NCBI GenBank assembly: GCA_051294905.1
Contig: CM119371.1
Coordinates: 27,282,001 to 27,346,000 of the forward strand
DNA from: Botryllus schlosseri
Lineage: Eukaryota
Direction of reading: 5' to 3'
Length of the DNA: 64,000 nucleotides
Shown: piece by piece, positions 25,599-64,000 of the stretch
Numbering within the stretch: the stretch's first letter is position 1
Layout: each line of letters opens with the position of its first letter
The notes under the pieces: model-generated
What the model was told of the DNA's origin: nothing
Databases searched by the model: none
What the model saw: only the letters and a program-made list of their open reading frames with translations
Program-made: the position numbers and the translations under genes

Positions 25599-26913
25599 CT
25601 ATATAAAGTATAGGTAGCAGCGTTGAATCCCTCGCATGTTATGGTCGTAATCGAAGAATATTGTTGAATTCATGTTTTACATTCGCTGAGCACCGAAGCC
25701 ACAACTTGATAAAACCAAATACTCCTACGGGAACGCGAAAACCAGTTATCACATTATGCGTAAAATTGACTACCCATAGTTTCACCGTACGTATAGGAAT
25801 TTCAGGACAGAGAACTCAACTTCGCATGGCGTCTTAGTACCTGTTACAACACATTCCGTGGTCCCAAGCTGTGCGCTAGATGCAGACGGTCGCTCCTTCG
25901 GAGATTTATCTCGTCCTTTTTCCATTTCTTCAGCGTGCACGAAGTCGAATTACTGCTACCGTATGGGATACTTTAAAATCACTTGGACAACCAAAAGCCT
26001 TGACTGCAAACGAACAACTGAACACCAGCACGCAGACAACTATACCTTCGCAACAGCTATTGCGGGCCACGGCTAATAAGTAGCTCGCCTTGCTAATAAT
26101 GACGTTTCCAAGATAACCAAGGCACGATTGCTGTAAGTAAGGCTTAGAATTTTTCTATTGGCTGTATCCTTTTTTGTTAGTTTGAACATATAGTGGTGCT
26201 TCGTTTAGCTGTGTACCTCAAGTTACAGGAATAAACTCCACTTTCGTGACGCATTGAAACCTGACATTGTTACATACCGAAAGGTATTGTTTAATTCGAT
26301 TGAGGGCTAAACCAATGGAGTCTCGGAAATACAGATATAACTGTCGAAATCAATTTAGTCCAGCCCAGTGGTTCTCAAATTGTAGAGCCACTAGTGCGGT
26401 TGTTTTCAAACTGTGATACGTGTGGTCACTAGTGGTACGCCAGGCGTTTTTATGTGGTACGCGATTAGTTCGGTGATCGTTGTATTTAGTCTTCAATTTG
26501 CTGTAACAATTTGATGTAACAATATCTGCAGTTGTACAAACATTTCACGTTGATACTATTGAGTCGCATGAGATCCACACTACAGTGATTACATCGTGGG
26601 TGTCAAACTTAAATTACTTCTCGGTTCGGATTAAAACCTTCAAATCGCTCGCGGGCCGCACCAGTCCACTCATTCCAAAAGTTACCTCAAGTTTTTGCTT
26701 ATCACATGAATACTGTATTATTAGGCATACATCGATAATTATAATCATGAGCCGCGATACGACGTAATATGCTATTGCAATAATACATATGACATTGCAT
26801 CACGGTTCGTAGGGGTTTTACTCCAGCAAATAGCAACACCTCTATTCGCGAACGATGGAATTGGTCGAAATACGATGATTAGCATGTCGAGTGCAGTTAT
26901 GAACCGCTAAAAC

Positions 26914-54494: not shown

Positions 54495-54652
54495 AGTAGT
54501 GTAATTGTGGTCCCGTGATTCGTAAAATACCGGAAACAAGAATGTTGCATTTCGGAAGTCAGAAACGGTGCATTTTGAGCTAGCTAGTGGTCGAAAATCG
54601 GCCTATGGAGCTTCGAAAAAGCGTCATTGTGCGCTTCCCGCGATCGATTTTG

Positions 54653-54915
54653 AAAACAGGTGTTTTAATGCGAAGTGACCTACATATTCTGCGGAGACAA
54701 ATGACTATGGTATCCTGTCCACTGAAATCACTACGCGAATTGCTTCCCGTGGAACAGGTTGGACTAGAAGCAATCCGTGAGCGTAAAACAGGTGTTTTAA
54801 TGCGAAGTGACCTACATATTCTGCGGAGACAAATGACTATGGTATCCTGTCCACTGAAATCACTACGCGAATTGCTCCCCGTGGAACAGGTTGTCGAAAA
54901 GCAATCGTGAGCGTA
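54653..54915 (+). repeat. 2 x 132-bp subterminal tandem repeat of the Polinton
   Basis: AAAACAGGTGTTTTAATGCG... at 54653 and 54785, nearly identical over the first ~108 bp. Confidence 0.95.
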
Positions 54916-55045
54916 CACAATCCGTAGCAAATACAACCGCTCAGGGCAAAACTGGCTCACTGTGTTAAGTATATCACGAATCACATATGACACGAAAATA
55001 TGCATCAACCATTGTGTATTGTGAAACAGTAGACACACATACATA

Positions 55046-55686: not shown

Positions 55687-55709
55687 TTTTATAGACCTAG
55701 TCACGTGAC
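55687..55709 (-). promoter_or_regulatory. Candidate promoter of the OB-fold gene: palindromic E-box GTCACGTGAC and TATAAAA
   Basis: GTCACGTGAC at 55700-55709; minus-strand TATAAAA at 55693-55687. Confidence 0.5.
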
Positions 55710-56170
55710 CATAAACGCGTAGTTACTCGGTTTAGAAGTTTGATGAATCGCCTGAACAGACTTGGTTTGAAATAATCCTTGCAGGAATTCTGTAAATAAA
55801 ATCATAGTGATAGTTTTATGATTGTGTAGTCTGAAATTCAGCATACCCAATCATTTGTCAGTGAGATAAAGTGTGTATTCAAGAATTTCGATGATACATC
55901 TGTGTACAATGAGATAGTATGAACATCACTTTTCATAGCTGCGATCGCTACAATGCACATAACACCATTCCAGTCCACACCGTACCCCAGAATCGCGTTG
56001 GTTAATGATGTGAAATCACATTTTTCGATGCTCTCAACAATTTGATCAGATATGTATAAATCAACGATATCGTGAACCAACTGTTCTGTTTCGCTCAAAT
56101 CAGGGACAGGTAAATGGTGATGGTGAAGTAGATAATTTTCTATAATCACTCGGGTATAAGTTGAGTCCAT
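55701..56170 (-). CDS. Putative viral Bcl-2-like protein, predicted two exons (56170-55847, 55790-55701), 137 aa
   Basis: BH4-like TRVIIENYL, BH1-like ILGYGVDWNGVMCIVAIA, BH2-like FISLTNDW|NSCKDYF after removing a 56-nt GTATGC...TTTTATTTACAG intron. Confidence 0.6.
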
Positions 56171-56298
56171 ATTGTGTAGTTACTGACAATAAAAACTGTG
56201 AAAATTCCGGTAATTAAGTGATCGTACATCGGAAATTAGAATGAATAAAAGGTTGTTATAATAAACAGAGTAACACGATATGAAATAGGAAGAAGGTG

Positions 56299-56336
56299 CG
56301 CGTGGCGGGAAAGAGGAAGTAGTTCTGAATAAATAG
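56299..56336. promoter_or_regulatory. Candidate bidirectional promoter: E2F-type GGCGGGAAA, ETS-type GAGGAAGT, TATA-like AATAAATA
   Basis: Motifs at 56304-56312, 56313-56320 and ~56328, between divergent ATGs at 56170 and 56422. Confidence 0.4.
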
Positions 56337-56421
56337 GTCCTCAGTAAACTGGTAAATCCCACTCGCTCATACCGAATATCATCCGTTGATCAGTATACCT
56401 CGATTTTAATTTGTGTTAATC

Positions 56422-57309
56422 ATGGCCCAGGCTCAGTTGAACAGATTTAATACCCTCGGGTATGAACCTAATTCTTTTGAACTACAATTTGAAGAGGATG
56501 CAGATATTTTGGAGGCCCTCCTACCCGAAGACCTCGTTGCTTCAACGACAGAGGTCGTTGAGTGTGATTCCACGACCCCTATCGAAAACCAACCGCCTCA
56601 CCGTGACATCACATTACAGGCATGGCTGGAATCGCGTGGTTCGAACCAAGTTGCGGTTGACAACCCGACAACCTCGGGTTCGAACTTACCCCTTCCAGAT
56701 GAACCGACAACTTCAGCTGTGTTACCAGTTGAGAAACCGTCAACTCCTCGTAAGATTTTTCCAAAATCTAGAGTTCGATCCGCGGTACCATCTGACAAAC
56801 CGACGACCTCTCGAAGGTTATTTTCTGGCCTACCAAAACCACAGATCCCAATCGAGAAACCATCAAGTTCTAGAAAGCGAGATGTACCCACAACCTCGCA
56901 ACAAACCAGTGCACCTCCGTGTAAAAAGATATGTCTCTCTAAATCGAAACAAAAAACTTTGGTTCTTAACCAGGAGAAACTCAGCGAGGGTGAAGATCGG
57001 CCGAAGACATCGCGAGGGAGACGACAAGAGGAGAAGATATGTCTGTACACCGCCAACAAAATTCGAGACCATCTCAAGACTCTTGAAGTGGTCAGACCAC
57101 ACCTAGGCGTGATTCTAGGTTTAATTGATTCCCTTACAGAAAAGAAGAAACCTTCCCTACAGAAAATCATTCTTGAAATAAAAAAGCTATTGGCTTCGGC
57201 TATTGAACGCAGTGATCTTGATCAGATTCAAAACCAACTGAACGATGCAACCAACCAATTCCTGAACCAGCTCTTAACAATTAGAACCACCTTGAAATAT
57301 AATTTGTGA
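56422..57309 (+). CDS. Polinton accessory protein (~295 aa): acidic N-terminus, disordered P/S/T-rich middle, basic NLS-like segment, helical C-terminus
   Basis: Long open frame, first ATG at 56422; repeated PTTS/PSSS/PKTS; PPCKK; leucine-periodic C-terminus. Confidence 0.8.
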   Translation: MAQAQLNRFNTLGYEPNSFELQFEEDADILEALLPEDLVASTTEVVECDSTTPIENQPPHRDITLQAWLESRGSNQVAVDNPTTSGSNLPLPDEPTTSAVLPVEKPSTPRKIFPKSRVRSAVPSDKPTTSRRLFSGLPKPQIPIEKPSSSRKRDVPTTSQQTSAPPCKKICLSKSKQKTLVLNQEKLSEGEDRPKTSRGRRQEEKICLYTANKIRDHLKTLEVVRPHLGVILGLIDSLTEKKKPSLQKIILEIKKLLASAIERSDLDQIQNQLNDATNQFLNQLLTIRTTLKYNL

Positions 57310-57520
57310 TTCAGTGTAATGTATTTATTGTGTGAATGTGAATGTTCATGTGATGTGTATGAAATTACAGATAATAGGCTTACAAACGATCTTAAATCGT
57401 GAACACTAGATGGTGCTCGCACTAGATTAATCTCGACGCAGCCAAATCGGTCTTTTCCACCTGGACGCCGCAGCGAGAGGATGTGAAATCTGCGCTCGTG
57501 AATATATTACCAATCCACGT

Positions 57521-57817
57521 GTAAGTATACACTGATCTTATTCAATAAACCAAAAGTTTGTGTTAACGTGATGTTTTCTTGCTTCATCGAAACAGAGAAA
57601 GAGAAGAATCAACCCCAATCATCGAACTTATTGCATCGGTGAGTTCTCTGTTTTTACTACCTTAAGTTGGTGAACATAATTTTGAGGAAGGTTGTTTCTT
57701 TGCTTACCAGGTGAAAAAGAACTCAAGATTTCAAGAGAAAAAATATAAGTAAGTATTACTATCTCGTTGATTACTAGAATACAGAGTGTGAAATTGAAAT
57801 CGAATTCAATGTTACAG
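57521..57817 (+). other. Three predicted short introns (57521-57595, 57639-57710, 57749-57817) upstream of polB
   Basis: Donors GTAAGT, GTGAGT, GTAAGT alternate with CAG acceptors at 75/72/69-nt spacing; last acceptor abuts the ATG at 57818. Confidence 0.6.
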
Positions 57818-60800
57818 ATGAGCCGTCGCAGAAGACACCGTATCCGTGAGGAAGATGAATTTCCACCAGATATTGGTGATGAACGTCAAGAAATTTTAAC
57901 ACAGAACTGGCAAGCCATAAAATCGTATGTAGCAAACATAGGCAGATCTCGAGTGGTGTACAATATTCGGATTATAAATCGTCAACTCTTGGCTGTTCGC
58001 GAGGACATTGAAGCGATATTCTTCTCTGAATCATATAGATTTAAAGTCAACTATTCATATGGCTGTATCCTATACCACACCGAGACTCTGAGATATCGTT
58101 ATTTTCATGCATCGTCAAATATCGATCGTGTTCTGGATATGCCATTGGCTATTTCGTCATTGATACAGTTTGAAAAATTTGTAGAATCCATTAAATTGGA
58201 AACTGCATTTGATGTATTGCGTAAAGCCCGACCTGATACTAAATCACAACCTGTTTGTCTAACAAATATACAGTTTTACATATTCCCTAGTGATCGGTTA
58301 TTGATAGGGTGTGCTGATGTTAAACTTCCTCTGTGGCTTACAAAATCGAAATGTGTCTTGACACTACTTTACGATAAAAATCGTAATCGGTATAATGATA
58401 ATCTGTGTGTATTTCGTTGCATTGGACACTCACTCGATCGTGATGCGAAATCACTGGCTCAACAGTATACCCAGGTTTATGGTGTGAACGTTGTTGGTGG
58501 TGTAACTTTTGAGATGTTACCTGACATCGAGACATTGTTTGATGTAGCTATATCTGTCTATCGTAAGACCGATGGTAAAGCTATTGCTGTCCGACGTAGT
58601 ACTTATGTAGCCACTCCTGTTTATTTACACCTCGAAAATTCTCATGCTTGCTTGATAACTCAGATCAATCGATACCTCGAAAGCTATCATTGTGAATCTT
58701 GTGGAAAATTTTTCGATATTGCAACCCATCTGACCAGGCACAACTGCATCACTGAACCTGTCGAGATATTTCCCGGCGGGATATATAGACCACCTTTGAC
58801 GGTATTTGAACGAATGGAGATTGAAGGCATAATTGTCCCAAATCATTTACGTTTTTTCAAATATCGGATTGCCTTCGATATCGAGAGTATGTTTCAACAA
58901 TGTGATTTTGATCCCTCAGCTAAAACGACTTACGAGTGGAAGCATATTCCAATTTCCGTTAGTATATCATCAAATGTAGACGGGTATTTGGAACCACAAG
59001 TAATTGTTTCGAATGGTGACCCAATTCAGTTGTGTGAAGAGATGGTAGAGATTTTTCATACAATTCAGAGTCGATCCTTCAGTCTGTTGCTAGTTGAATA
59101 CCGTCAATATCTCGATTTGTTTGAATCTAAAATCACAGAGATGAAAGTATTAGACCCCTCGGACAAGCCTTTACCATTGGAACGTTTACAAGATGAATTC
59201 ATGTGCTATCTAAGGCAAATACCAGTTATATCTTTTAATGGTGGTAGATACGATTTGAACTGTCTTAAGGTATACTTGCTGCGTTTTTTCGTTGATGAAA
59301 ACTTGAATGTTTTGAAGCGTGGTAACACATTTCTCTCGCTAACTACGAACAGGCTTCGTTTCCTCGATATCGTCAATTACTTGGCACCTGGTTTTTCTTA
59401 TGAAAAATATCTGAAAGCGTTCAAATGTAGTGGTGGAAAGGGTCATTTTCCATATGAATTTCTGACTAGTATTGAACTGTTAGATTACCCTATGCTCCCG
59501 AATCATCAGTCATTTTATAGCTCGATAAAACGTTGTAATATATCGAAAGCTGATTATGAAAACTGCCTCAAGGTTTGGAATGATCATAATATGACATCGC
59601 TTCGTGACTATCTAAAATGGTACAATGCAATTGACACACACTACTTCATTGAAGGCCTAGAAAAGCAATTCGACTCTTTCAAGTCTCAATTTAATGTGGA
59701 TATATTTAAAGAAGCTGTCTCGCTGCCGGGTGTGGTTTCGAGGCATATATTCAATTCCATTCCAAGGTACTTTACCTTGTTCAGTGAAAAGCATAAAGAT
59801 CTAGCTTTACTTTTTCGTGAAAATCTTGTCGGTGGCCCCTCAATCATCTTTAATCGGTATCAAAAAAGGGGGGAAACTCGCATAAAACAACTTTTCTATG
59901 GTAAAGATGCGGAAATAACACAGTATATAACAGGTATGGACTGCAATTCGATGTACTTGAAAGCAGTATCGATTGCGTCACCCGCAGGCTATCCCATTCA
60001 TTGGAAAAGCCTTGATAACGAGTGTTCTAAATTTAAACCGGTTAAGACTGCTCCTACCTTTGGTCATAAAGCACATGAATGGATACAGTACTATTCTCAT
60101 GTTCATGGTGTACATGTCCACCATGCTTTCAACGGGTCTGAAGTAAGAATAGGATCCAAGGGGTACCCTGCAGATGGCTTCTACCGTGACTCATCAGGTC
60201 GAGGCGTTGTGTTATCATTTCTGGGATGTTTCTACCATTCTCACAGTAAATGCCGCTTTTCGTATGACGACCCGACGCGTCGAGAACGAACAGAACGTGT
60301 ACATTCATATTACAGAAGCCTAGGGCATCGTGTTATCACGATGTGGGAATGTCACTGGGATATCTCTAAACGTGAAAACTCCGAAATCACTCAATTTATA
60401 AACAGTGTTCGACCTCGATTGATTCGCAACAAGTCACTAACAGCTCATAAGTTGATTGAAATGGTGTTAGATGGAACGTTCTTTGGGGCTTTACTGGTTG
60501 ATATTTACACTCCTTCCCATTTGAAAAGATATTTTTCTGAACTGTGTCCAATATTCAAAAACACCCTTGTCTCACGTAACGACTTGAAAGGTCACATGAA
60601 GCAATTTGCTATTGATCACAACCTATTACCAACACCAACACGTATGTTGGTTGCATCGTACTATGGCCAGAGAATTCTTTTGTCATCGACATTGATAAAA
60701 TGGTATATAGAACATGGTCTAATTGTTTCACGGGTATACGAGGCAATTGAGTTTACAAAATCAACTTGTTTTGACGGTTTCGCAAAAACTGTCTCTGACG

Positions 60801-61669
60801 CGAGACGCCTAGGGGACCGCGACCAAGACAAGGAAATTATTGCCTTGACTCATAAGCTTTCTGGGAATGTGATATATGGGAAGATGATAATGAACCCCCT
60901 CAAATTTAAACGAACCAGTTTTTGTGATAAAAGTCAATTGCGGAGAAATGTCAATGATCCGTTTTTTGTGAATGTAGAAGACTTGAGCTCCAATTTATAC
61001 GAAGTAACCAAAAGGCCTAAAAAAATAAAATGGAATACTTGCATTCACGTCGGATGGTTCGTCTATCAATACGCGAAGGAGCAATTACTATCGTTTTTTT
61101 ACGACTGTCTCTGTGCGTACTTTGATGACAGGAAATGGACTTCCTTAATGTGCGATACTGACTCGATCTACGTCGGGCATTCAGCTTCTTTCGATGATAT
61201 GCTAATCCCAGAAAAAAGATCTGAATTTTATCTGAATTACGAAAAATGGTTCCCACGCTATTTTTGTGACCAACATAGAAATGAGTTCCTGTCCAACCCA
61301 ACCTCATTCGATCGAACGAGACAATGTTGTAAAGATGTCTATGCATACTTTCTACGGGAACCAGGTTTGTTCAAGGTCGAATACGAGGATGGCACTGCAT
61401 TTTGTGGTCTCCAGTCGAAAAATTACTTTTGTGATGGTCCAAAACAAAAGTATGCCTCGAAAGGTCTTCAGAAATCTGGTCAAGTAAATTTTGAAGCATT
61501 CCTTGAAGTATTGACATCTCAAAAACCTATGGGGGGTCATAATAGAGGTTTCAGAGTTCATAATAATGGTATTTACACGTACCAGCAGCATCGCGATACC
61601 TTGTCTTATTTTTACGCCAAGCGTCATGTTCTGGACGATGGCGTCACCACTATTCCGTTGAATGTGTAA
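57818..61669 (+). CDS. polB: Protein-primed family B DNA polymerase (N-terminal/terminal-protein region, vOTU-like domain, Zn finger, 3'-5' exonuclease, Vsr-like insert, polymerase)
   Basis: Exo motifs FDIE, FNGGRYD, KGHFPY, YNAID; GGPS, DCNSMY, KLSGNVIYGK, DTDS; frame open from 57767, likely start ATG 57818 (alternative 57809). Confidence 0.97.
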   Translation: MSRRRRHRIREEDEFPPDIGDERQEILTQNWQAIKSYVANIGRSRVVYNIRIINRQLLAVREDIEAIFFSESYRFKVNYSYGCILYHTETLRYRYFHASSNIDRVLDMPLAISSLIQFEKFVESIKLETAFDVLRKARPDTKSQPVCLTNIQFYIFPSDRLLIGCADVKLPLWLTKSKCVLTLLYDKNRNRYNDNLCVFRCIGHSLDRDAKSLAQQYTQVYGVNVVGGVTFEMLPDIETLFDVAISVYRKTDGKAIAVRRSTYVATPVYLHLENSHACLITQINRYLESYHCESCGKFFDIATHLTRHNCITEPVEIFPGGIYRPPLTVFERMEIEGIIVPNHLRFFKYRIAFDIESMFQQCDFDPSAKTTYEWKHIPISVSISSNVDGYLEPQVIVSNGDPIQLCEEMVEIFHTIQSRSFSLLLVEYRQYLDLFESKITEMKVLDPSDKPLPLERLQDEFMCYLRQIPVISFNGGRYDLNCLKVYLLRFFVDENLNVLKRGNTFLSLTTNRLRFLDIVNYLAPGFSYEKYLKAFKCSGGKGHFPYEFLTSIELLDYPMLPNHQSFYSSIKRCNISKADYENCLKVWNDHNMTSLRDYLKWYNAIDTHYFIEGLEKQFDSFKSQFNVDIFKEAVSLPGVVSRHIFNSIPRYFTLFSEKHKDLALLFRENLVGGPSIIFNRYQKRGETRIKQLFYGKDAEITQYITGMDCNSMYLKAVSIASPAGYPIHWKSLDNECSKFKPVKTAPTFGHKAHEWIQYYSHVHGVHVHHAFNGSEVRIGSKGYPADGFYRDSSGRGVVLSFLGCFYHSHSKCRFSYDDPTRRERTERVHSYYRSLGHRVITMWECHWDISKRENSEITQFINSVRPRLIRNKSLTAHKLIEMVLDGTFFGALLVDIYTPSHLKRYFSELCPIFKNTLVSRNDLKGHMKQFAIDHNLLPTPTRMLVASYYGQRILLSSTLIKWYIEHGLIVSRVYEAIEFTKSTCFDGFAKTVSDARRLGDRDQDKEIIALTHKLSGNVIYGKMIMNPLKFKRTSFCDKSQLRRNVNDPFFVNVEDLSSNLYEVTKRPKKIKWNTCIHVGWFVYQYAKEQLLSFFYDCLCAYFDDRKWTSLMCDTDSIYVGHSASFDDMLIPEKRSEFYLNYEKWFPRYFCDQHRNEFLSNPTSFDRTRQCCKDVYAYFLREPGLFKVEYEDGTAFCGLQSKNYFCDGPKQKYASKGLQKSGQVNFEAFLEVLTSQKPMGGHNRGFRVHNNGIYTYQQHRDTLSYFYAKRHVLDDGVTTIPLNV

Positions 61670-61718
61670 TGTGGTTGCTTTTGTATATTTCTGATCATGT
61701 TTTTTCTTGTTTTCTCAG

Positions 61719-62261
61719 ATGAATAGTGCAAGTTCTTTCATCAAATCTGTTTTAATAGAGTTAGATCTGGATACTTTGCATAAGCAAACCATTGGCTTGG
61801 AACAGGATTTAACGCAACACTCTATTGTCGGGACCCAGGACGAACCACTCACCGGTACGATATCCGACCGTCATTACAGAGAGCGCCTGAATCAGCTCGA
61901 GCAAAGATGGAACTCTATTCGTGAAATATGCATGGAAGCACTACTACAACTCCGATTCCCAGACCGCAAGCTACCGAGTGATCACCAAGACATTTTCAAT
62001 CGAGCCAAGCTGACGAATTATGTCGTTTTGGGTAAAACCAGGACTTGGATCCCACTTTTCGATAGGGAGGAAAAAAGAGCCAACTTCAAGAATTGTATGC
62101 GTGGACGTTCGTTGCAGTTCTTTCTCGACGACCATCGTGCCGCCAACTCTCGAAAACGATCTCATTCAGATTCGGAAAGCAGTGATGCTGGAACACAACC
62201 TTCTGAATTGAGAAATGATGGCTTCCCCGATAACTATAACTGTGCCGATCCCAATTTGTGA
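61719..62261 (+). CDS. Polinton hypothetical protein A (180 aa), paralog of the next gene
   Basis: ATG directly follows TTTTTCTTGTTTTCTCAG; aligns with the spliced product of 62379-62842. Confidence 0.8.
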   Translation: MNSASSFIKSVLIELDLDTLHKQTIGLEQDLTQHSIVGTQDEPLTGTISDRHYRERLNQLEQRWNSIREICMEALLQLRFPDRKLPSDHQDIFNRAKLTNYVVLGKTRTWIPLFDREEKRANFKNCMRGRSLQFFLDDHRAANSRKRSHSDSESSDAGTQPSELRNDGFPDNYNCADPNL

Positions 62262-62378
62262 TATTTTGCTGTTTAGTGATAATGCTTATCAATTTTAAGT
62301 GTTCAAATGTAATATCTGATCGGGTTAAAGACCAGTTTTGTGCTCGGATGGTTAATGTATTTGTGTTTTGTTTTACAG

Positions 62379-62842
62379 ATGGCTACTAACTACTTAAAAT
62401 CTATACTGCAACATTCCAACCTGGATCAACTACACAACAAGACACTGCGCCGTTATCACGATCGCATTCAAGTCGTCGACATGTATTTGAGACATGATAT
62501 GTCGAATGAATTCTACAATCAATGCATTTCAAGCCAACGCGATGATTTAGAACAATGCTCCCATGGTGAGATAGCATGTATGATTTTGTGTTCTCATGGT
62601 AGACATTTTCACAAATAACTTTCTGACACAACTCTAATACCATTTCATATCTAGACTGGGAACAACTGCTCGACGACCTTCAAAAAGCCTTTGTGACCTT
62701 GCAGCTACCCCTGACGAAATTACAAGCCAGTGATGAGGACTTTGTGACACGCGGCAAACTACTGAATCGAACTTTACTGGGGTTATACATCCCACTTGAG
62801 GATGAATACAACAGTGGGTTTTCCCAGTCCGCAGACTCGTGA
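62379..62842 (+). CDS. Polinton hypothetical protein B (124 aa), two exons 62379-62565 and 62655-62842
   Basis: 89-nt phase-1 intron GTGAGA...CTCTAAT...CTAG; splicing gives a gap-free alignment with protein A across the junction. Confidence 0.8.
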
Positions 62843-62890
62843 TATATATATATAAATACATTCGTTTTTCGAGTTTGAATAAACAGCAAC

Positions 62891-63499
62891 ATGGAATTCA
62901 AGCATCCTTTCTCATTCATCCTATCTGGACCATCTCGTAGTGGTAAAACTACTTTCATCACTAAACTTATCAAGAATGCAGCCTCGATGATCAAACCTAA
63001 TATTTCTAGAATCGTGTACTGTTATAATAATTATCAGAGTATTTTTGAGACCATGCCCCAGGTTGAATTTTACAATGGATTGGAGATTTTGGAAGATCTT
63101 AAATCAAGTAATGAGGATGTATTGATAATAGTAGACGATTTTATGACTCAGACAGAAAAATTGGTAGAATATTTTATACGTATATCGCATCATAATCGAA
63201 AGTCAATAATTTTATGCACGCAGAATTTCCATCATCAGGGTAAAGGGGCTCGCGACCTTAGTCTATCAGCTATGTATGTCTGCCTGTTTAAAAATCCCAG
63301 AGATCAGAACCAAATATCCGTCTTGGGGCGTCAGATGTACCCAAAGTCTAAGTTTCTAACAGAATGTTATAGAGACGCTGTCAAGAGACCTCATTCGTAT
63401 TTGTGCCTGGATCTCACCCAAGAGTGCCCCGACGATAGACGGGTCATGACCAATATATTTCCAGGCGAAACATTGACTATTTACACTCAACCGGTATAA
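62891..63499 (+). CDS. A32/FtsK-like DNA packaging ATPase of Polintons
   Basis: HPF, Walker A GPSRSGKT, Walker B IIVDD, SHH...TQN, LFKNPRD, YLCLDL; TATA-like TATAAATA at ~62851. Confidence 0.95.
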   Translation: MEFKHPFSFILSGPSRSGKTTFITKLIKNAASMIKPNISRIVYCYNNYQSIFETMPQVEFYNGLEILEDLKSSNEDVLIIVDDFMTQTEKLVEYFIRISHHNRKSIILCTQNFHHQGKGARDLSLSAMYVCLFKNPRDQNQISVLGRQMYPKSKFLTECYRDAVKRPHSYLCLDLTQECPDDRRVMTNIFPGETLTIYTQPV

Positions 63500-63529
63500 A
63501 TACCGGAGTGTACGCTGTTCTGGTTCAAA

Positions 63530-63877
63530 ATGACTCCGATTCCGCGCAGAACAAGAGACCATTTGCCAACATTAGCATTCTTGCATCAAGCTAAACCTTC
63601 GATACGCAAGGAGATTTTATCTGGGGCTAGTGAAGGTCTAATACGTTGTATTTGTGAGTGTGCGAAAAATTTATTACACGGAAATATACCGCTATCAGCG
63701 TCCCAGAGAAAACGCTTGTGTTGCCATAGGAACATCTTGAGGAAGCTTACCAGTAAAGACGTTTCATTGCGCCGTAAAAGGACTCTTGTAACTCAAAATG
63801 GTGGGATGTTTATGTCTCTAATATCAAGTATACTCCCAGTAGTTACAGGATTACTCGGGAATTTATTTAAGAAATGA
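63530..63877 (+). CDS. Polinton PW-like basic virion protein with C-terminal GG cleavage-like site and amphipathic tail
   Basis: LIRCICECAKNLLHGNIPL and QNGGMFMSLISSILP resemble PW as recalled; follows the ATPase; TATAAATA at 63495. Confidence 0.8.
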   Translation: MTPIPRRTRDHLPTLAFLHQAKPSIRKEILSGASEGLIRCICECAKNLLHGNIPLSASQRKRLCCHRNILRKLTSKDVSLRRKRTLVTQNGGMFMSLISSILPVVTGLLGNLFKK

Positions 63878-64000
63878 CCCATTTTAAGAAAATCTACGTC
63901 ACGCCGAATCCACTGAACCATGTCGACATTCAAAAACTGAATTCGGACATCGATAAACGTATATATGAAATATTACAAATGGATATTCCACGGGGTAAAA
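63874..64000 (+). CDS. 5' part of the next Polinton ORF (probably PZ-like), truncated by the window end
   Basis: ATG overlaps the PW stop (ATGA); open to the end: MTHFKKIYVTPNPLNHVDIQKLNSDIDKRIYEILQMDIPRGK; assignment rests on synteny and weak resemblance. Confidence 0.6.
   Translation, partial: MTHFKKIYVTPNPLNHVDIQKLNSDIDKRIYEILQMDIPRGK

Follow-up and report, generated by a model that had tools for sequence, protein, structure and literature searches.

In adenovirus, transcripts from a single promoter carry the major late tripartite leader, spliced to one of many alternative late bodies. Here we analyse a stretch of 64,000 nucleotides from the tunicate Botryllus schlosseri (hereafter the window, to whose first letter all coordinates refer), which carries most of one copy of a Polinton/Maverick transposon. 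Its DNA polymerase gene, polB, is preceded by closely spaced splice motifs that the initial annotation had read as a possible leader of the adenovirus kind, shared by polB and by two downstream genes, A and B. The locus resembles adenovirus in having what look like short non-coding exons and introns before a viral gene, and in its protein-primed family B polymerase; unlike in adenovirus, the leader was not seen joined to A or B here, it seems private to polB and the other genes take a host spliced leader (SL) in trans.

The operons of Ciona consist of juxtaposed cistrons of which the downstream ones are trans-spliced (PMC1488885). As far as that account goes, the present locus is alike in its use of one host SL at an AG acceptor, in its co-oriented genes with very short or no intercistronic DNA, and in the position of an upstream 3' end near the downstream acceptor (here AATAAA at 62880, CAG at 62886 and a poly(A) site at about 62901). 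It is unlike the operons described there in being a virus-like, multi-copy element whose acceptors abut the start codons, so that the SL alone makes up the 5' untranslated region (5'UTR), and its single precursor is presumed. The SL1-type operons of Caenorhabditis have no intercistronic sequence, their cistrons are apposed and the same leader serves monocistronic and operon genes (PMC1488885); they belong to another phylum and use another SL, and the part of that account drawn on here describes no mobile-element context for them. In our literature search no paper connected SL trans-splicing with Polintons or Mavericks, and among titles and abstracts on introns or splicing in adintoviruses there was nothing on animal elements. 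Overall, we are fairly confident that the locus is best explained by SL-capped A and B mRNAs, a private cis-spliced leader of polB and an operon-like arrangement of the genes.

Genes A and B receive the host spliced leader

Gene A (180 aa, 61719-62261) and gene B lie behind polB on the plus strand and, from their sequences, are paralogous, with A matching both B exon 1 (BLASTP E = 9e-5) and B exon 2 (E = 3e-7) in colinear order. Gene B consists of exon 1 (62379-62565), an intron of 89 nt (62566-62654, GTGAGA...AG) and exon 2 (62655-62842, phase 1, stop codon at 62840-62842), and is followed by AATAAA at 62880-62885. A T-rich spacer of 49 nt ending in CAG (61670-61718) precedes A and a spacer of 117 nt ending in TTTTACAG (62262-62378) precedes B. 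The gene starts therefore read ...TTTTCTCAG/ATG at 61719 and ...TTTTACAG/ATG at 62379, where the slash marks the acceptor.

Expression was followed in two runs of raw RNA reads from the same species (X20 and X24) and in a run of contigs (X1) that we guess to be RNA; a run carrying a second organism label (X17) gave 0 aligned reads. Splice joints are those carried by at least three reads or by any contig, and loose ends, where a read or contig ceases to match the genome, are those listed for these runs. In 288 reads of X24 the unmatched 5' letters ...ACATGGGG ATTGGAGTATTTGGTTGTATTA stand directly before 62377, at the B acceptor, and in four reads of X20 adapter sequence followed by GGAGTATTTGGTTGTATTA stands directly before 61717, at the A acceptor. 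Both loose ends thus begin at the AG of CAG/ATG behind a T-rich tract, which is the setting of a 3' splice site. The AG at 62377-62378 can be assigned to the SL or to the genome, since the leader itself ends in AG, and the join in both genes is therefore leader/ATG. The letters in front of ATT in the X24 reads resemble what we take to be the end of a template-switch oligo, in which case the start of the SL is the 5' end of the RNA. The mRNAs of A and B are SL trans-spliced at CAG/ATG, and their 5'UTR is the 24-25-nt host SL alone. The initial annotation had placed SL acceptors last among its three alternatives, and the search for SL-bearing reads at the ATGs, which it had proposed, was positive for both genes; its observation that polB, A and B each begin at CAG/ATG, with T-rich tracts before A and B, was also borne out.

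Comparison of the copies of the element agrees in placing the acceptors. The CAG/ATG of A is kept in 18/18 aligned copies, as is TTTTACAG/ATGGC at the start of B, and the spacers have diverged, with many indels in the distant family and large ones in the spacer of A. The B intron was removed in 295 X24 reads of this allele, and the allele of copies L009-L011 was spliced in 154 X24 reads and in an X1 contig (depth 33.9); the body of the intron has diverged among copies with its splice sites kept. The X1 bin depth over the B intron (24.2) equals the contig depth of 33.9 multiplied by the non-intron fraction of the bin, and X1 therefore holds only spliced RNA there.

At the 3' end of B, 34 X24 reads turn into a run of A after 62901, which is 16 nt past AATAAA and 11 nt inside the open reading frame (ORF) of the following ATPase gene. 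Within 62880-62901 several signals overlap, namely the AATAAA, a CAG (62884-62886), the start codon of the ATPase gene (62891) and, inside its ORF, the poly(A) site of B (about 62901); this CAG is not kept in the diverged family of elements. Another loose end, at 62394 (34 X24 reads), was considered as the joint of an alternative 5' exon and rejected, as no AG precedes 62394. The sequence behind it ends in ...CTGTCTAGGG and its 30-mer occurs at 28 genome sites; this switch is probably the end of another transposon that is inserted in gene B of an expressed copy.

The leader is identical to the 'Chordata 1' SL, which a published compilation gives for Botryllus, Halocynthia, Polyandrocarpa and Boltenia and from which the Herdmania SL differs at one position (PMC3795323). 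It is thus a stolidobranch ascidian SL, and the host is therefore a trans-splicing ascidian of stolidobranch type. The leader was not found in the portion of the element up to 64000, and its sole match in the window is a 19-mer with two mismatches at 25707-25725 on the minus strand, far outside the element, which is possibly one of the SL-bearing repeats. In the 495-Mb assembly that was scanned, the leader occurs at 554 dispersed sites with at most one mismatch (0 for the reversed control), and at 101 sites the exact leader is followed by GT. When 12 SL loci of 3 kb were compared all against all, the 24-nt SL was the sole sequence common to most of them, and in some families of SL sites the upstream flank is conserved too. 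At the SL sites L031-L054 (for example L039, L041, L043 and L050) a long ORF often lies about 25-100 nt downstream, and two ORFs behind genomic SL sites carry a Baculo_FP_2nd domain. Some genomic SL copies repeat the tail of the SL (GTTGTATTAAG) right behind it, and at L050 a poly(A) stretch and a piece resembling U1 small nuclear RNA lie directly upstream of the SL. The dispersed sites look like the outcome of frequent retroposition of SL-capped RNAs.

The leader region of polB

Upstream of polB, three donors (GTAAGT at 57521, GTGAGT at 57639 and GTAAGT at 57749) alternate with three acceptors (CAG ending at 57595, 57710 and 57817), the last of which lies directly before the polB ATG at 57818. 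All features are on the plus strand. Non-coding exon 1 (57373-57520, with a putative 5' limit) is followed by mini-intron 1 of 75 nt (57521-57595, GTAAGT...CAG, containing AATAAA at 57544), an A-rich micro-exon 2 of 43 nt (57596-57638), mini-intron 2 of 72 nt (57639-57710, GTGAGT...CAG), an A-rich micro-exon 3 of 38 nt (57711-57748) and mini-intron 3 of 69 nt (57749-57817, GTAAGT...CAG). The donors, acceptors and lengths are all as the initial annotation had given them. GTRAGT occurs 35 times on the plus strand of the 84 kb around the site that were used for motif counts (0.42/kb), three such motifs fall within 240 nt at 291 of about 83,760 positions, and among the 13 plus-strand ORF starts of the element CAG/ATG is found at polB, A and B only. 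By these counts, the array of splice motifs is more than chance would be expected to produce.

The conservation of splice sites among copies, which had been suggested as a check, is complete at the level of the dinucleotides. All six sites are kept in 21/21 copies (one of them read in two pieces with an insertion between), including six copies that are about 20% diverged. The first donor is GTAAGT in all 21 copies; the second is GTGAGT in 10, GTAAGT in 5 and GTAAGC in 6; the third is GTAAGT in 15 and GTAGGT in 6. Every acceptor reads CAG except for one TAG at acceptor 2, and CAG/ATG at the start of polB is likewise present in 21/21. The introns are T-rich, like the intron of B, and the micro-exons are A-rich (micro-exon 2 has 42% A and 19% T, micro-exon 3 has 58% A) and, by inspection, less conserved than the introns. 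Micro-exon 2 has no ATG in any copy, and an in-frame ATG at 57809 would be removed together with mini-intron 3. In RNA, mini-intron 2 is spliced out in one X24 read and one X1 contig (depth 2.6), with a joint recorded as 57637>57710, 'GT..AG (cut +1)', which corresponds to 57638/57711. Based on conservation and this one junction, the three mini-introns before polB look real and would be removed from a cis-spliced non-coding leader, which appears to be private to polB and not shared with A or B.

Between the stop codon of the upstream gene orfU and exon 1 lies a T/G-rich spacer (57310-57372, plus strand), in which GAAATTACAGAT is invariant in all copies aligned there and which ends in the candidate SL acceptor TTACAG (57367-57372). 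We infer that the SL may be added at this TTACAG as the start of the polB leader.

In other Polinton families the region before polB takes two forms. Four copies at 66-68% amino-acid identity in the polymerase, together with a fifth at 61%, carry four donor/acceptor pairs ahead of TTACAG/ATG, with introns of 60-65 nt, exons of about 33-43 nt and all sites kept in 5/5. Their leader gives no significant alignment to the one described here; what can be aligned is the end of orfU, the start of polB and short islands at two donors. In the 68% family ...CCGTTTCAG lies about 65 nt past the homologous orfU stop, compared with 63 nt here. The families at 35-38% identity have no donors and show a pyrimidine tract with CAG 1-17 nt before the polB ATG, a short distance past the stop codon of their orfU homologue; this is the type of site found at A and B. 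From these sequences we predict SL acceptors at ...CGTTTCAG in the 68% family, at ...TTTCCAG in the 37% family and at ...TTTTTGCAG in the 35% family. An origin of the mini-introns by tandem duplication of an intron-exon unit was also considered and found no support, with z of at most 2.4 for the local alignment score of every pair compared among the introns, the B intron and the intergenic spacers (300 shuffles).

Proposed operon-like expression and its alternatives

The genes orfU, polB, A, B and ATPase are co-oriented, and the spacers to the next acceptor are 63, 49, 117 and 44 nt, mostly a T-rich tract that ends in CAG; co-oriented genes with a spacing of about 100 nt or less are what an SL-resolved operon would show. 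We propose that the block would be transcribed in an operon-like manner and that the host SL would release and cap its cistrons, using acceptors that abut the start codons or shortly precede them; for A and B this step is seen. In this clade polB would add a cis-spliced, non-coding, multi-exon 5'UTR from which the three mini-introns are removed; the last leader acceptor abuts the polB AUG, and splicing would strip the ATGs that lie in the introns. If the leader starts at TTACAG, the polB mRNA would consist of the SL, exons 1, 2 and 3 and the ORF. In X24, six reads lie at 61496, upstream of the A acceptor; the summed depth is about 50 for A and about 485 for B, and the ATPase has a depth of 0 in X20 and X24 (bins 63067-64000).

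Several observations weigh against this proposal. An X1 contig (61433-63525) covers the 3' end of polB, A, B in its spliced form and the ATPase, and a contig cannot show that these were on one molecule; coverage falls steeply upstream of 61460, which fits an internal start near 61430-61460 as well. The depth over polB is zero from 57931 to 61140 in X20 and X24, and reads cannot be assigned to a single copy among at least 14 near-identical ones. For the leader, the RNA evidence consists of intron 2, in one read and a low-depth contig; for introns 1 and 3 no junction (57520/57596 or 57748/57818) is listed in X20, X24 or X1, so that of the junctions initially proposed for the leader itself 57638/57711 was seen and the other two stand on conservation. 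Another X1 contig (depth 8.9) continues past exon 1 into intron 1, reaching at least 57552, and part of the RNA therefore either keeps intron 1 or terminates there. The pyrimidine tract of acceptor 3 is poor. None of the loose ends listed has the SL directly before 57372, 57595, 57710 or 57817, which is no real test of its use there. Finally, among the 23 SL loci inspected, whose downstream sequences differ, no SL RNA gene with a donor and a common Sm-type unit was recognised.

The shared leader of the initial annotation, in which exons within 57410-57748 are transcribed from one promoter and alternatively cis-spliced to polB, A or B, is in our view very improbable. The three bodies do begin with CAG/ATG, and there is no GTRAGT on the plus strand between 57749 and 63654, so that the leader donors could in principle reach the acceptors of A and B. 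However, X20, X24 and X1, which cover bodies up to 64000, list no joint linking 57520, 57638 or 57748 with 61719 or 62379; the host SL is joined to B in 288 reads and to A in 4 instead, and A and B are expressed where polB and its leader are almost without reads. It is similarly improbable that the SL-B reads derive from retrocopies of SL-bearing mRNAs that lie in the genome and are transcribed there, although hundreds of genomic SL sequences are fused to other DNA, many of them at the 5' ends of retroelement-like repeats. Intron-less B was not found among 13 full-length and one partial close copies (40 scored of 80 candidates), the reads therefore reflecting splicing and not retrocopies, and in the 288 reads the RNA begins with the SL, directly behind oligo-like letters, an outcome that transcription of a retrocopy from a promoter upstream of it would not produce.

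For the leader itself, a small spliced upstream ORF that controls the translation of polB, which had also been proposed, is hardly credible. In this copy the joined exons can indeed be read in the polB frame (frame 2), the translation was reproduced and TAA falls at the last donor, but the frame stops after six codons. It is also not conserved among copies: micro-exon 2 is 36-46 nt long and micro-exon 3 is 35-38 nt, lengths that do not vary in threes, six diverged copies lack a 16-nt stretch that contains the ATG at 57410, neither of the two short upstream ATGs is conserved, and the micro-exons are less well kept than the introns. The out-of-frame lengths and the unconserved ATGs imply that the leader is non-coding. 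We also consider it unlikely, if less so, that the motifs are idle as introns, with the SL joined in trans to polB at 57817, or else at 57595 or 57710, as it is to A and B, and the donors either unused or in another role, such as binding U1 to suppress the AATAAA at 57544. In favour of this, an SL-type acceptor unaccompanied by donors precedes polB in the Polinton families at 35-38% identity, RNA support for cis-splicing of the leader is minimal, and the AATAAA is 23 nt behind donor 1. Against this, the alternating donors and acceptors are retained in every one of the 21 copies, four donor/acceptor pairs recur in a family whose leader is otherwise unalignable, the junction is exactly 57638/57711 in two runs, and the AATAAA is kept in only 10/21 copies.

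Under the operon-like proposal with a private polB leader, the reads show an expression route for the packed genes of a virus-like transposon in a trans-splicing chordate. With a host capped leader added at acceptors on the start codons, the element would not need a promoter and 5'UTR for each gene, and SL-bearing reads are a practical marker of processed Polinton mRNAs. The arrangement suggests long co-adaptation of these Polintons to tunicate mRNA processing. In addition, three to four tiny introns that are kept through complete sequence turnover of the leader offer a natural case for a role of 5'UTR introns in a mobile element. We regard as speculative, and on balance improbable, the further idea that the multi-intron leader persists under selection as a device in one Polinton clade and is no relic, in which an SL-capped exon 1, two to three micro-exons and three to four minimal introns are placed before an otherwise intron-less polymerase ORF of 3.9 kb. 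If it were true, the leader may mark the transcript as 'spliced' and shield it from a host surveillance directed at mobile-element RNA without introns, or may set the dosage of polB relative to the genes that carry the SL only; in a replicative state, its donors may feed late-gene acceptors beyond 64000 and so act as a true shared leader. Taken with the acceptors fixed to the start codons, expression of the element would then be built around host trans-splicing, and expression of these genes may be poor in hosts that do not trans-splice.

The element and its genomic context

The element at 54495-69904 is one copy of a multiplied Polinton/Maverick of about 15.4 kb, extending past the end of the window, and is adintovirus-like. 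This assignment follows from its terminal inverted repeats (TIRs), polB, an A32-like ATPase and an rve integrase with a chromodomain. The left TIR (54495-54984) was found by self-BLAST on the minus strand against the right TIR (69551-69904, outside the window), with 96.9% identity between 54495-54785 and 69616-69904 and 90.5% between 54785-54984 and 69551-69746. X20 reads and an X1 contig have the same non-matching sequence in front of 54437, a point 58 nt beyond the TIR boundary given by self-alignment, and other copies of the element may end at a different place from this one.

The polB gene (57818-61669, plus strand) encodes a protein-primed family B DNA polymerase of 1283 aa, with a match to Pfam DNA_pol_B_2 that is below the cut-off (E = 2.7e-4), 211 marine-invertebrate homologues at E of at most 1e-5, many with PF03175, and 0 matches to PDB sequences by phmmer. 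The ATPase (62891-63499, plus strand, 202 aa) is of the A32-like packaging type (Pox_A32, E = 4.3e-6), and the integrase at 64217-65293 has rve (E = 3.3e-15) and Chromo (E = 9.8e-10) domains. Seven non-integrase ORFs between 64217 and 69527 matched no Pfam family, and capsid and protease genes were thus not identified by Pfam. Six late ORFs (65544-69527), none with a Pfam family, lie head to tail with 4-nt ATGA overlaps at four of their junctions, and their ATGs have no preceding acceptor-like site.

The copy number of these elements is high. At least 20 copies of this family were retrieved for comparison, and a search of the genome with the polymerase N-terminus gave 271 candidates, of which 150 were scored, pointing to a very large Polinton load. 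The matches fall into identity classes of about 95-100, 72, 63-69, 56-62, 37-39 and 35-36%, and many have open frames of about 1294-1381 aa. Over 55707-57938, a stretch that holds orfU, the region upstream of it and the leader, identity to the L024-L028 family is about 80%, whereas the polymerase body is about 69% identical; from the sequences, this contrast would reflect either a recombination mosaic or an unusual constraint.

Upstream of polB, orfU (56422-57309, plus strand, 295 aa) is taken from the ORF list. It had no match in Pfam or PHROGs, and neither had A, B or the minus-strand ORFs of the left end. We considered orfU as a terminal-protein-like duplicate of the polB N-terminus and rejected this (best BLASTP E of 0.86). 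Codon-position bias does not distinguish orfU from the antisense ORF at 56598-57170, as their third positions coincide; orfU is open in 5/7 copies compared, with a length of 281-295 aa, and ORF conservation favours orfU over the antisense frame. In X20, which looks stranded, first mates at 56968-57288 are mostly on the plus strand (2.21 vs 0.64), the opposite of the A/B region, which suggests antisense transcripts over the 3' end of orfU; the X20 reads at 56968-57288 all carry variants of another copy.

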